Shown here: positions 11,236 to 64,000 of the stretch, piece after piece | Layout: each line of letters starts with the position of its first letter | How positions within the stretch are numbered: position 1 is the stretch's first letter | NCBI GenBank assembly: GCA_949480205.1 | Contig: CASXXK010000002.1 | Location: 1,017 to 65,016, forward strand | Length of the DNA: 64,000 nt | Direction: 5' to 3' | From: an uncultured Candidatus Saccharibacteria bacterium | Lineage (GTDB): Bacteria; Patescibacteriota; Saccharimonadia; Saccharimonadales; Saccharimonadaceae | The notes under the pieces: generated by a model | What the model was told of the DNA's origin: nothing | Database searches by the model: none | Seen by the model: only the letters and a program-made list of their open reading frames with translations | Position numbers and translations under genes: made by a program

Positions 11236-12264
11236 TTAGATAATTCCCCCTTGAACCGCCAAGAACACACCAACCAAGGCAAAAACCCCTGCAATCACCC
11301 AAAACCGCATCACAATCTTAGCCTCACCCCAACCTTTAGCTTCTAGATGATGGTGAATCGGCGCCGAAATTAATAATTTCTTATGAAACACTTTCTTCCA
11401 AAAAATCTGTATCAAGCTCGAACCCGCCTCTACAACAAATAGAAACCCAATAATCGGCAATAAGAAAAACGCATTTGTCATCATAGCCACCACACCAAGT
11501 CCCGCACCAATTGCAAACGACCCCACATCCCCCATCATAAACCTCGCTGGTGGCACATTGAACCAGATATATGATAGCAGCCAACCAACCACCGTCAAGC
11601 AAAAGCCAGTCAACATCCAATTCCCTTGAAAAAGCGCAATCACAGCATAAGCTCCATAAGCCAACATCGCCAGACCACCCGCCAAACCGTCTAATCCATC
11701 CGAAATATTTACCGCATTCGACGTTGCTACCACAGCAAACGTAAAAATCACAATCATCCCCACTACACCCACTTCAATGTCACCCATAAACGGCACCATA
11801 ATGTCCGTCCAACCCAACTTCACCGCAAACCACCAGCCCAAAACTGCACCAATCGCAGTAATCATCGCAAACTTCACTGGCGCGCGCAAACCAGCTGCTC
11901 CCTTCCCGCTACCAAAGACGTTAATCAAATCATCAATCAACCCCACAATACTGCCACCCACAAACCCTGCCAAAGGTAGCCAAGTCTGCTCACGATTAAG
12001 ATTACAAATCCAGGTTACGATTAATACCGTTATTACACCAATAATCCCTGCCATGGTCGGAAAATGCCGCGCCATTTTCTTGGCATGCAACTTCGTCATC
12101 ACCGGCAAAGCCTCACCGGTCACTGTAGTCTTTTTTTGTTTTTTCCAAAACTTATATTTATAGGCAAAATAGGTGTAAATCGGTGTCAAAAAAGTCGCCA
12201 AAAAGAAGGCCGCCAAAGCCAATATCAAGCCATAAAATGCTTCGTTATTTAGAGTATCAGCCAT
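11236..12264 (-). CDS. mraY: Phospho-N-acetylmuramoyl-pentapeptide transferase
   Basis: PTMAG, GLIDD, NAVNISDGLDGL, FMMGDVGS, APIHHH. Confidence 0.96.
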   Translation of the reverse strand: MADTLNNEAFYGLILALAAFFLATFLTPIYTYFAYKYKFWKKQKKTTVTGEALPVMTKLHAKKMARHFPTMAGIIGVITVLIVTWICNLNREQTWLPLAGFVGGSIVGLIDDLINVFGSGKGAAGLRAPVKFAMITAIGAVLGWWFAVKLGWTDIMVPFMGDIEVGVVGMIVIFTFAVVATSNAVNISDGLDGLAGGLAMLAYGAYAVIALFQGNWMLTGFCLTVVGWLLSYIWFNVPPARFMMGDVGSFAIGAGLGVVAMMTNAFFLLPIIGFLFVVEAGSSLIQIFWKKVFHKKLLISAPIHHHLEAKGWGEAKIVMRFWVIAGVFALVGVFLAVQGGII

Positions 12265-12289
12265 ATACCACCATTATAACACAATCTCC

Positions 12290-12512
12290 CCATGTCTAAT
12301 ACAGTACTAAGGCAGCGGAGGGAGAAAGCGAACCAACGTTCGCTGGGACCATATGATGGGTTGACGCCTGAAGCACCAAATGCAAGACTATAACCACTGG
12401 GGACTGCTGTACCATCGCTGCGAGTAGATGTACCTCGTGACGGCCACCAATAACCGTTAGCGCCAGCATACCAAGCTTTGCCGTCGTAGAGACTAAGACG
12501 TCCGCTGCGCAC
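12290..12512 (-). other. Orphan FISUMP/CLec variable-region cassette A
   Basis: Open frame VRSG...GYWWPS...YSLAF...VNPS...RWFAFSLRCL; no full-length gene upstream. Confidence 0.75.
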
Positions 12513-12567
12513 GAAAATTTTATCGAAATGAGTAATAGTAGGGATTGTCCTACCGAGGATAGCGAAC

Positions 12568-12770
12568 AGAAGAAATGCTTGCATTTCTTCTTGAGTGACG
12601 CAGGTAGCAAGACTTTCACTAAAAAGTCTTGCTACAGCCCCTTGTTTGTGCGAGAATGGGATTAACTAAATGATTAGTTATCGTTCACGCTTGCGGACGA
12701 TAACTTTTTTGTTGCGCCTTTTGACGAAGCTAAATCGAACCATAGGATTCGCTCTAACTTCAAGGCGTAA
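12568..12770. repeat. Cluster of palindromes between the two cassettes
   Basis: agaagaaatgcttgcatttcttct; gtagcaagacttt..aaagtcttgctac; agttatcgt..acgataact; ttgcgcctt..aaggcgtaa. Confidence 0.7.
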
Positions 12771-12903
12771 ACGCCAAAGTAGTACTACCATAGCCAACCT
12801 CCTTTCCCCAGATGCTACTGATATAAATGTCAATTTGCTATTACTCTATCTCCAGCATATAACAAATTTTCTCAAATTAACAAGCATATCCGATAATAAA
12901 GTA

Positions 12904-13111
12904 GTGCGCAGCGGGTATTTTACTCTTGCTCATGTTGAGGGTGTCTTCGGACTTGCTGGCTTCCACGGGTATAACTGGTCGTCTCATAGTTCTTCAACCA
13001 ATACTCACACCTATGCACTAAGTATTAATAATACCGCTATTTACTCATCAGGTGCCAACAACCGTTACTACGGTTTCTCCCTCCGCTGCCTTAGTACTGT
13101 ATTAGACATGG
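12904..13111 (+). other. Orphan FISUMP/CLec variable-region cassette B
   Basis: Open frame VRSG...GYNWSS...YALSI...NNRYYGFSLRCL. Confidence 0.75.
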
Positions 13112-13119
13112 AGAGATCA

Positions 13120-14853
13120 CTACACTCCTGCCGGCTTAACTTTCAAGTAATCCTGCACGTAAGCATTCAGCGCATTAAACACCAGCAATGCTTGCGCCTC
13201 ACCCCCCGCCGTCTTACCATCCTCCCATACGCGTGTCATAATCAAATACTGCGGCAATTCCCCCTCCGTACCACCAAAACCAATGTACGTCGCCACCGTC
13301 TCATCAAACGAATATTCCCCATTCTTAATCACCTGTGCCGTACCAGTCTTACCTCCAATGTGATATCCTGCTTTATCCACACCATTCGTCCGTTGCGCCC
13401 GCCGAGTGTTGTACAGCATCTCTCGCATCGCCGCACTGGTTTCCTGTGTCACTGTCCTCCGCACCACCTTCCGTGGCGTCGTATCTACCACCTCGCCGTC
13501 TTTCAAGACTCCCTTTACGATTGTCGGTGTATAAAACTCTCCTCCATTAATCACAGAAGCAAACGCTGCCGCCACTTGAAGCATCGTCACCTGCATATTT
13601 TGACCAAAAGTCATGTTGGCATAAGTCGAATCTATCCCATAAATGCTTGCATTTGGCTCGTACACAATTCCCGTGGCCTCAAATAACTCAATTCCAGTTG
13701 CTTGCCCCAACCCAAAACGATCATGATAATAATCATATAACCGTTCTCGCCCTTGCGCATTGATATCTGTCTCGCTGCCACCCAGCCAACGCAGCACCTG
13801 CGTCGACCCAGTGTTCAACGACCAATTCAGCGCTGTCTGCATGTTCACCGTACCCAACAAGTCCGTCCGCTGAGTCGAGTTTTTAATTGGCCAATTATCC
13901 ACGTAGGTAACATTTTCATTCACAAAGGTCGACTCGGCCGTCATTACGCCATATTCCATACCTGCTGCAAACGCAAACGTCTTGCAAACACTTGCCGGCT
14001 CGTATGGGTCTTCCACCACATGGTTTACATAATCTGCTGCACTCCTCACATTACCAAAATCCGCCGGATCATATCCTGGCACATTAGCCATTGCTAGAAT
14101 TTCGCCATTATTTGGATTCATCACTAAAGCACTAATATTTTCATAACCAAGCTTCTCGGCTTGTTCTGTCAAAATTTTCTCTACTCCGTGTTGCAAGTTC
14201 CGGTCTACCGTCAACACTACATCGTCACCGTCTTCTGCTGGCACCTTGACATTCTCATCACCAATCGAAAGTGCAACGTTATTTACGTCTTTCACAGTTT
14301 TCAAGATACCATCCTTGCCTGTCAATTTTCCGTTCAACGCACCTTCCACGCCGTATTGACCCACGCCATCAGCATTCACAAAGCCCAGCAACGTGGCAGC
14401 CAAATCCCCCTCAGGATATACTCGTTTAGTACTAGCCTGAAGCCAAACCCCATCAACTTCAGCTTCAGCAATCTGCTCCGCCGCTTTACGCTCCACGTTT
14501 TTCCCCACAATATAGTACCTGAGCGCCCGGTTCGCAAACACATCGTCCCACTCCGCCGTGCGTTTCTCGCCCAAAATTGGTGTCAATTTTTCCTTAGCCT
14601 CCTCCGGATCAGTTAACATCGGATCTACAATTACCGTATAAACCGTCGCGTTCATCACTACCGCCACCGGCTCATCACCATCCATCATATAAATCTCACC
14701 GCGCTCCGCCCGCAAAGTATATTGCATCATCTGTTGCGCTGCCGCCCGTTCTACCCAATAGTCGTGTTGCACGATCTGAATAAAAAACAACCGCGCCACG
14801 ATCACTGCCATCACAGCCAATACGCCAAACTTGAGGAATTTATTCCTGCTCAT
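13120..14853 (-). CDS. ftsI: Class B penicillin-binding protein (FtsI/PBP3)
   Basis: RGEIY, RVYP, GQYGVE, SxxK (SVCK), SLN, KTGTAQ; dcw context. Confidence 0.92.
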   Translation of the reverse strand: MSRNKFLKFGVLAVMAVIVARLFFIQIVQHDYWVERAAAQQMMQYTLRAERGEIYMMDGDEPVAVVMNATVYTVIVDPMLTDPEEAKEKLTPILGEKRTAEWDDVFANRALRYYIVGKNVERKAAEQIAEAEVDGVWLQASTKRVYPEGDLAATLLGFVNADGVGQYGVEGALNGKLTGKDGILKTVKDVNNVALSIGDENVKVPAEDGDDVVLTVDRNLQHGVEKILTEQAEKLGYENISALVMNPNNGEILAMANVPGYDPADFGNVRSAADYVNHVVEDPYEPASVCKTFAFAAGMEYGVMTAESTFVNENVTYVDNWPIKNSTQRTDLLGTVNMQTALNWSLNTGSTQVLRWLGGSETDINAQGRERLYDYYHDRFGLGQATGIELFEATGIVYEPNASIYGIDSTYANMTFGQNMQVTMLQVAAAFASVINGGEFYTPTIVKGVLKDGEVVDTTPRKVVRRTVTQETSAAMREMLYNTRRAQRTNGVDKAGYHIGGKTGTAQVIKNGEYSFDETVATYIGFGGTEGELPQYLIMTRVWEDGKTAGGEAQALLVFNALNAYVQDYLKVKPAGV

Positions 14854-61373: not shown

Positions 61374-61763
61374 TCAATGCTTTTTTATCTCTAGCAGTTG
61401 ATTACTTTTCGTAATAATCAGCATGACCTTCAGTCTTTTAGACATTCGGAACTTAGTTTGAATAGTGCTACTCACTTTTTTCTCATCTCCTTTTACTCTA
61501 CGTAAATCAATTATCAAGTTTGGTGATTGCTTCGCAGCATATTTTAACCGCTTCATTAAGGTGTTTATATTAGCAGATTCTGGGGATTTCATTTCCCAAG
61601 TTTTACCATACAAAATTATATCGGCATTTTTCCTCCCCACAGTATAACTCGGCACAATCAATTCCACGTCATTACCTCGCTCCAAAAAGAAGTCCACCGT
61701 TAGCCTTTCATGCGGTTGTAGGTATACGCCGTTATCAGTTAAAACACCTCTTGATTTTATCAT
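61374..61763 (-). CDS. Stand-alone CdiA-C-like PD-(D/E)xK nuclease domain
   Basis: PHE..., KNAD, WEMKSP, AAKQS, IIDL pattern recalled from CdiA_C tRNase-like proteins. Confidence 0.6.
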   Translation of the reverse strand: MIKSRGVLTDNGVYLQPHERLTVDFFLERGNDVELIVPSYTVGRKNADIILYGKTWEMKSPESANINTLMKRLKYAAKQSPNLIIDLRRVKGDEKKVSSTIQTKFRMSKRLKVMLIITKSNQLLEIKKH

Positions 61764-61845
61764 GCCAAGCATTGTAACATATTTTGAACACTTTTACCTA
61801 CCACAAGCATCTTCTTTGGGTAATTTTGTGCTATAATATATAGAT

Positions 61846-63791: not shown

Positions 63792-64000
63792 ATGACAAAA
63801 CCTCCATCGATTAAGACTGCCGAAATTGACAAATACGCCAATCTCGACCTACATCAACTCGAAACCGCCCTTAAAGCTATCCAACAAGAACCTCCCTCTT
63901 CCGCCAATAAAGCCACGGCGCGTGCAGTCCGCCAAGCTATCCGCCAGCGTCAACGTATTATTAAAGCACAAGTCATGGAATTTGAGCAGGCTAACGACCA
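63792..64000 (+). CDS. Hypothetical protein, 3'-truncated by window edge
   Basis: Open frame from ATG 63792 (MTKPPSIKTAEIDKY...) to the window end. Confidence 0.5.
   Translation, partial: MTKPPSIKTAEIDKYANLDLHQLETALKAIQQEPPSSANKATARAVRQAIRQRQRIIKAQVMEFEQAND

Follow-up and report, generated by a model that had tools for sequence, protein, structure and literature searches.

A candidate library of silent variable cassettes, with dispersed template genes and a DGR-type reverse transcriptase, in a Saccharibacteria genome

Introduction

Dispersed, truncated donors with conserved flanks and a variable core are known from the msp2 pseudogenes of Anaplasma, from pilS of Neisseria and from the tprK donors of Treponema, and we know of no retroelement that feeds any of them. 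In shufflons, C-terminal segments of a surface protein can be swapped. Diversity-generating retroelements (DGRs), with that of the Bordetella phage BPP-1 as the prototype and with Treponema-type systems with remote targets and a CPR clade as further examples, have a reverse transcriptase (RT) of the DGR clade, an accessory protein of the Avd fold, an AAY-rich template (TR) with an upstream:downstream duplex, and a C-terminal variable region in which change is biased toward adenines; a DNA hairpin just 3' of the variable repeat is one more of their features. The vls system of Borrelia has one expressed gene and many silent cassettes between short constant repeats, from which segments are copied; it is described as having 15 silent cassettes, 17-bp repeats and one-way transfer that needs RuvAB and not RecA (PMC2779866).

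The DNA analysed here is a stretch of 64,000 nt (the window) in an 855-kb Saccharibacteria assembly, G000, whose contigs are called C1, C2, C3 and so on; the sequencing runs that contain this DNA are mostly from mouse gut. The system found in it resembles DGRs in its RT, its Avd-fold accessory protein, its AAY-rich TRs with their duplex, the C-terminal position of its variable region and the adenine bias of its changes; RT, accessory protein, TR and target are all present at the level of the system, and the TRs would be transcribed and reverse-transcribed. It differs from them in that no TR lies beside the RT, ten stand-alone TRs with different scaffolds being present instead, and in that about 84 variable regions lie outside genes and depart from the adenine-only pattern. 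With vls it shares the single expressed gene, the many silent cassettes between short constant repeats and the segmental copying, whereas its cassettes occupy single or paired intergenic slots that are dispersed and turn over between species, and they are read here as DGR-derived; that conversion takes place is what we infer for them. Unlike shufflons, the system has no clustered invertible segments and no adjacent recombinase, and its cassettes face outward, with exact duplicates among them. The open-access literature yielded no description of gene-less cassette libraries or of dispersed TR genes in Saccharibacteria; supplementary DGR catalogues may list such loci.

Results

The cassette pair between ftsI and mraY

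An earlier note, made from the letters of the window, had pointed to two back-to-back variable segments (A and B, Table 1) with identical ends and divergent middles. A and B share the 11-mer at which they start and the 38-mer at which they end, and the middles, 174 nt in A and 159 nt in B, are indeed divergent. The richness in NNY codons was also borne out (41/57 in A and 42/52 in B vs 153/343 in mraY and 235/578 in ftsI). The absence of a convincing start holds for the gene body, none being found, but there is an in-frame ATG 24 codons upstream of A, and B lies within a 338-codon frame antisense to ftsI. Both look incidental, because an exact twin of A on C3 (see below) has other upstream DNA. 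Cassette B gives a weak match to Pfam Fib_succ_major (E 0.05), positions 12853-12902 of the spacer resemble, at 94%, a portion of another pair's spacer (C1:18583-18849), and an Rfam search of window positions 12100-13300 returned no family.

Table 1. Features of the cassette pair, its flanks and the RT locus (window positions unless a contig is named)
Feature	Position	Strand	Remarks
Silent cassette A	12290..12512	-	223 nt; variable tip VRSG...FSLRCLSTVLDM, without gene body
5' anchor of A (VRSG codons)	12502..12512	-	found in every cassette, in each of the 10 TRs and in the full-length gene
3' constant block of A	12290..12327	-	the full-length gene has the LSTVLDM part as its tail, which TRs lack
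Spacer between A and B	12513..12903	.	391 nt, several hairpins
Silent cassette B	12904..13111	+	208 nt; nearest TR is C1+59120
3' constant block of B	13074..13111	+	ends 8 nt short of the ftsI stop codon
TATAAT box ahead of mraY	12273..12278	-	
mraY	11236..12264	-	flank
ftsI-type penicillin-binding protein gene	13120..14853	-	flank
DGR accessory gene	63792..64000	+	331 aa; start of the gene, runs past the window; overlaps the RT gene start
DGR-type RT gene	G000:C2:65796-67010		starts 780 nt beyond the window end; found by tblastn

Cassettes across the genome and in relatives

A 19-mer of the 3' anchor, searched with up to 2 mismatches, has 84 copies across G000 and none in three shuffled genomes, so that the copies are not due to chance and the 38-mer, for which the earlier note had proposed a genome search, belongs to a genome-wide family. 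The 5' anchor lies 150-230 nt upstream in 67 of the 84, and 16 are cut by contig ends. The cassettes are spread over at least 21 contigs, make up about 2% of the assembly and are all intergenic, with no copy within a long ORF. All 67 two-anchor cassettes begin at the same codon; upstream of them the frame stays open for a median of 9 codons, with an ATG in 8/67. Back-to-back pairs number 26 by count, and this orientation is found in 25 of 33 close cassette neighbours.

Relatives carry the family too, with 75 anchor matches in G093 and 73 in G088, and with at least 150, at least 122 and at least 81 profile matches in G053, G070 and G097, respectively; among the 150 matches listed, the open frames are short except for one 620-aa gene. 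Each of the latter three lineages has a cassette tail of its own, which in G070 is the end of that genome's full-length gene, and 60 of 65 cassettes in G093 have a GGT variant of the tail.

Several arrangements were noted besides. The two cassettes at C5:29708-30131 lack a spacer, being fused where the 5' anchor has its palindromic centre. Spacers of pairs fall into classes of 14-16, 84 and about 120-128 nt (for example C1:135109-135194, C19:5766-5894 and C3:33731-33852; also C2 near 67550), the longer ones hold perfect hairpins that are found away from cassettes as well, and some spacers contain a small gene (C9:6014-7165, C10:5619-6228). Tandem cassettes, in which a tail abuts the next 5' anchor, occur in G097 (L183, L195), G070 (L175, L190) and G053 (L182), and in G097 the word TACTAG stands in the cassette tail and just ahead of some cassettes. 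An ORF family of about 130 aa with a motif that by eye is nuclease-like (window 61374-61772, minus strand; C1:5249-5635; C7:38745-39143) turns up repeatedly close to TRs, to cassettes and to the target gene. Within the same genus, G067 has about 40 long FISUMP-like genes (L075, L079, L082, L086, L089, L092), paralogue expansion being an alternative strategy there.

The target gene

One FISUMP-like gene was found in G000, on C20, where the contig breaks off just before the tip; its orthologues in G088 and G093 likewise run off their contigs before the tip, and the tip of the target is missing from the G000 assembly. P0004 agrees with the C20 gene at each of the 468 residues assembled there, and its end reads PLYF-VRSG...LRCLSTVLDM, so that a full-length FISUMP-type gene with both anchors, as the earlier note had suggested looking for, does exist. 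The target scores 41.2 bits against TIGR02145, just below the cut-off of 41.65, and its variable region is at the C-terminus in P0004 and its alleles. The N-terminus of the protein has a basic start and a hydrophobic stretch. The protein is likely to be surface-exposed, and target and cassettes would belong to an adhesin.

Ahead of the anchor, the 5 members of the P0004 cluster have at least 99.2% identity; their tips are of 4 different kinds. Compared by eye at the protein level, the 4 tips resemble patchworks of TR families; P0125, for example, has a tip whose first part is like TR C6+19322 and whose second part is like TR C1+59120. The homologous gene of L159 and the RT are convergently oriented, and the tip of that gene lies between stretches that correspond to the ends of C20 and C2. 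In Logan contigs from four runs, the final 55-75 nt of the G000 target gene (L012:2828-2903, the end of C20) are preceded by several other 5' sequences, and the summed contig depth rises several-fold; further expressed genes may share the constant region.

The reverse transcriptase and its partner

The statement that the window contains no RT is correct for the window itself, but the accessory gene begins inside it and the RT gene follows shortly after its end (Table 1), so that the DGR RT and the predicted Avd-fold partner sought by the earlier note are both present. The RT has 404 aa and scores 37 bits against RVT_1 (cut-off 29.6); a Pfam RVT_1 search of G000 matched only an unrelated RT on C8 and missed it. 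It is 40-54% identical to RTs of the genus with adenine-only TR/target pairs and is nested among them, in a clade of 25 rows with SH-aLRT 99 (quick tree of 44 rows, none dropped). Within this clade, TR/target mismatches at A vs other positions are 20/56 vs 0/132 in L039, 21/60 vs 0/120 in L037, 14/46 vs 0/110 in L038 and 20/52 vs 0/127 in L164. For L031 there are 30/172 non-A mismatches, and its local alignment may have entered the flanks.

The accessory protein found no match in sequence searches of the ESM Atlas, Pfam or the PDB. Residues 188-321 of its predicted model (pLDDT 84.9) align with Bordetella Avd (4dwl) with Z 14.5 and an rmsd of 1.9 over 106 aligned residues, a score of the kind that four-helix bundles easily reach; the position of the gene supports the identity as Avd. 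Its N-terminal domain is MutS-like by eye. The RT on C8 (C8:26001-27506, 501 aa), at the edge of a polysaccharide locus and with a relative in G073, is probably of a defence type.

Dispersed template genes

Ten stand-alone, AAY-rich TR genes are dispersed in G000, none of them beside the RT. Nine have 7-13 AAY codons each vs a mean of 3.5 in cassettes. They share a leader of about 200-250 nt and a tail, distinct from that of the cassettes, and 7 of the 10 lie near tRNA genes (cassettes, 17/68). An Rfam search of the ten loci matched no family besides the neighbouring tRNAs. The helices of the leader show compensatory change in 20 of 42 flank pairs, a level reached in none of 500 shuffles; related sequences can beat a shuffle control, and slid partners score far lower. 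A 9-bp helix that joins leader and tail is nearly invariant, so covariation tells little about it; it resembles the upstream:downstream duplex of the Bordetella RNA (bioRxiv 10.1101/2023.10.23.563531). Boxes resembling -10 elements stand ahead of the 8 leaders that were correctly located. The TR compared with one RNA run, X19, has no coverage there, which speaks neither for nor against its transcription.

The same leader lies directly behind the RT in L160, L161 and L164. Its motif was counted 10 times in G000, 12 in G093, 8 in G088 and 5 in G070, with any match in 15 of 121 genomes; the exact TR-tail pattern was found in none of the 40 relatives of a first draw, and closer relatives surfaced in the draw of 120 genomes. 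From these comparisons it looks as if, in this clade, the TR moved away from the RT and became multiplied. The TRs would be used in trans.

Two further observations concern TR-like sequence. A stretch similar to the TR tail lies about 150-200 nt 3' of the target stop (last 420 nt of C2, reverse strand; L158, L159, L164) and is conserved in relatives, which could mean that the target transcript is itself primed, or could be a relic. In one TR slot (L155:4488, plus strand; L154:4434, minus strand) the core is that of a silent cassette of the same assembly, while L153:911 (plus strand) has another core there; L128:16317 of G088 is listed with the same observation. Cassettes may overwrite TR genes, or the assembly may be chimeric.

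Adenine imprint and selection on the cassettes

A higher mismatch rate at adenines is not in itself specific, since a cassette-cassette control also gives 0.43 vs 0.31, and the direction of change was used instead, with each cassette compared with the TR that gives the fewest total mismatches. Over 65 distinct intact cassettes, changes from TR to cassette at codon positions 1-2 number 960 for A>N vs 521 for N>A, while the controls are symmetric (708/700 between cassettes, 77/67 between TRs); G088 and G093 agree with G000. Divergence from a TR specific to adenine, which the earlier note had proposed as a check, is thus seen as a bias in the aggregate but not as an adenine-only pattern in the pair itself: A differs from its nearest TR at 22/39 A and 53/161 non-A positions, B from C1+59120 at 20/39 and 46/140. 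As canonical DGR variable repeats A and B were rejected, being intergenic, not adenine-only and without a 3' hairpin; the 46-nt cassette tails fold no better than shuffles (z 0.2-0.7). Assigning each cassette over its whole length to one TR was likewise given up, on account of the many non-A mismatches. Adenine-only tracts of at least 30 nt are found in 1/66 cassettes of G000 (controls 0-1), in 0/60 of G093 and in 21/50 of G088 (controls 2). The DGR imprint in G000 is old and diffuse.

Between the cassettes of G000 and the TRs, 52% of non-A third positions differ. The conserved interior residues use all their synonymous codons and the border codons are nearly fixed, and the frame is broken in only 1/67 cassettes, against about 91% that should acquire a stop codon under a crude simulation of neutral change. 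Because they are synonymously saturated and yet almost all open-framed, the cassettes are old and under selection at the protein level. Such selection on silent DNA would be most simply explained if the cassettes were now and then read into protein.

Copying, slot turnover and exchange with the gene

Cassette A, taken as 12284-12517, is identical over 234 nt, including 43 adenines, to the cassette at C3-33731, and the flanks are unrelated. Of 2278 cassette pairs (median identity 55%), 3 reach 99.5% identity or more with flanks that differ, and 16 of 16 cassette pieces at contig ends have a twin. The exact twins point to copying at the DNA level and not to a route by way of the mutagenic RT.

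The ftsI-mraY slot is empty in three of five relatives (G070, G067 and G097), holds two other cassettes with another spacer in G093 and has at least one cassette in G088. In the empty allele the TATAAT box follows the ftsI stop after 5 to about 25 nt, and the pair of G000 sits between the two. Empty alleles, which the earlier note had wanted mapped, thus occur, and two decayed ordinary genes, which it had named as counter-evidence, are not what the relatives have. In tiles of G093 and G088 chosen around cassettes, the cassettes are 49-61% alike at 17 slots shared by G000 and G093 and 0.45-0.65 alike at 14 slots shared by G000 and G088, which is the background level of likeness, while the shared TR slots are mostly conserved (0.83 and 0.91, both in G093; 0.78, 0.82 and one 0.62).

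When 25 full-length tips were compared with 215 elements of three genomes, one tip matched as a whole and one more in part, both in sister species; these matches are at the protein level, across separate assemblies, and carry no direction. P0007 is identical to the G088 gene at 461/465 residues; two silent G088 cassettes each differ from its tip by one residue, and no TR is more than 61% like that tip. In P0133 the last 42 variable residues and the tail are exactly those of the silent cassette L153+427, and the first part is different and TR-like. Five tips from the species of G000 had no match among the G000 cassettes (best 0.73). Some assemblies of the family are chimeric (P0130, with a TR tail at its end; L153-847), so single junctions can be artefacts. 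As DNA, tips of the expressed type have 10/147, 15/159 and 24/138 non-A mismatches with the TRs. Because the expression site is otherwise TR-like, flow from cassette to gene would be the simpler reading of these sequences.

The earlier note had left open whether the segments are silent donor cassettes or captured cDNA or TR-like copies. The first possibility gains from the exact twins, the turnover of slots between species and the matches of tips with cassettes; the second is not supported, as the cassettes have the tail of the target gene and not that of the TRs, and the twins are exact over 43 adenines. Its idea that tips of a surface protein are swapped by way of the anchors would accord with the donor role.

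The 5' anchor, at 11-17 nt, is short for RecA; recA and ruvB are both present in G000. No recombinase specific to cassette-rich genomes stood out among 29 genomes chosen by match count: one common tyrosine recombinase is in 29/29, cassette-rich or poor, and serine-recombinase matches are heterogeneous. A dif-like reading of the anchors was dropped as unsupported.

Discussion

The reading that we prefer, at a probability of roughly two in three, is that the DGR writes the tips and that DNA copying bounded by the anchors stores and returns them, the cassettes being a donor library. New tips of the expressed gene would likely be written by the DGR, with its ten dispersed TRs; tips would likely be stored in intergenic slots by DNA copying that makes no errors and is bounded by the two constant anchors; and stored tips would likely be pasted back into the expressed gene, whole or in part. 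Gene conversion as the route, and the direction of copying, are both what we infer, and the role may be binding to a host bacterium or escape from phage or antibody.

An unlikely course would be that tips are copied from the gene to the slots and among slots and never return, the frames staying open for no other reason than a functional source and fast turnover. That the cassettes carry the lineage's own target tail together with a few bases of 3' flank is consistent with this one-way archive, as are the young, TR-like look of the G088 cassettes and the identity of P0007, which fits either direction. Snapshots of the gene should, however, look TR-like or decay, whereas it is the expressed tips that are TR-like and the cassettes that have diverged and kept their frame and scaffold; P0133, a TR-like 5' half with a cassette-derived 3' part, also argues against it.

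It is very improbable that the cassettes are all DGR targets at ectopic sites, where TR cDNA rewrites them without exchange with the gene. All cassettes have the 5' and 3' homology of the TR and share in the A>N bias, and G088 cassettes have adenine-only tracts and mosaics of several TRs, but the exact 234-nt twins, with their 43 adenines, never passed a mutagenic RT, the adenine-only tracts of G000 and G093 are not above control, the cassette tail is without a hairpin, and protein-level selection would be left unexplained.

A shufflon- or invertron-like mechanism, in which cassettes reach the gene through inversion or reciprocal exchange by a recombinase that acts on the anchors as its sites, would account for the border codons being nearly invariant as DNA, for the back-to-back placing of 25/33 close neighbours, for the C5 pair fused at the palindrome centre and for the different spacers at a shared slot. 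It seems hardly likely all the same: ftsI and mraY still flank the slot in G093, the twins imply copying and not exchange alone, partial sharing of 3' halves occurs, tandem cassettes are many in G097 and G070, and the recombinases found are either present regardless of cassettes or heterogeneous. Remnants left by the decay of ordinary paralogues, or artefacts of assembly, are barely credible, for although G067 has dozens of full-length FISUMP genes and chimeric contigs exist, the same start codon in 67/67, the upstream open frame of median 9 codons, the 73-84 copies in three independent genomes and the slot empty in 3/5 relatives all speak against them.

Within the preferred reading of a DGR-fed donor library, a closed loop can be put forward tentatively, as a possibility that we hold to be doubtful, in which about ten trans-acting TRs invent tips, 70-150 silent slots archive the successful ones, conversion recalls them and archived tips can also overwrite TRs. 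If it were true, the library would reseed the mutator, and about 2% of a minimal genome would be given to generating, storing and recalling tips for one protein.

Standard DGR finders, which need a nearby TR, a coding variable repeat and adenine-only mismatches (PMC8144416, PMC5758913), would miss such a system. The RT apparently serves ten natural TRs in trans with segmental mixing, which bears on the DGR mechanism and on the engineering of multi-template mutators. The system would join mutagenic retrohoming and silent-cassette conversion, each known separately, in a genome of 855 kb, and it offers a concrete candidate for how gut Saccharibacteria may retune their binding to host cells.
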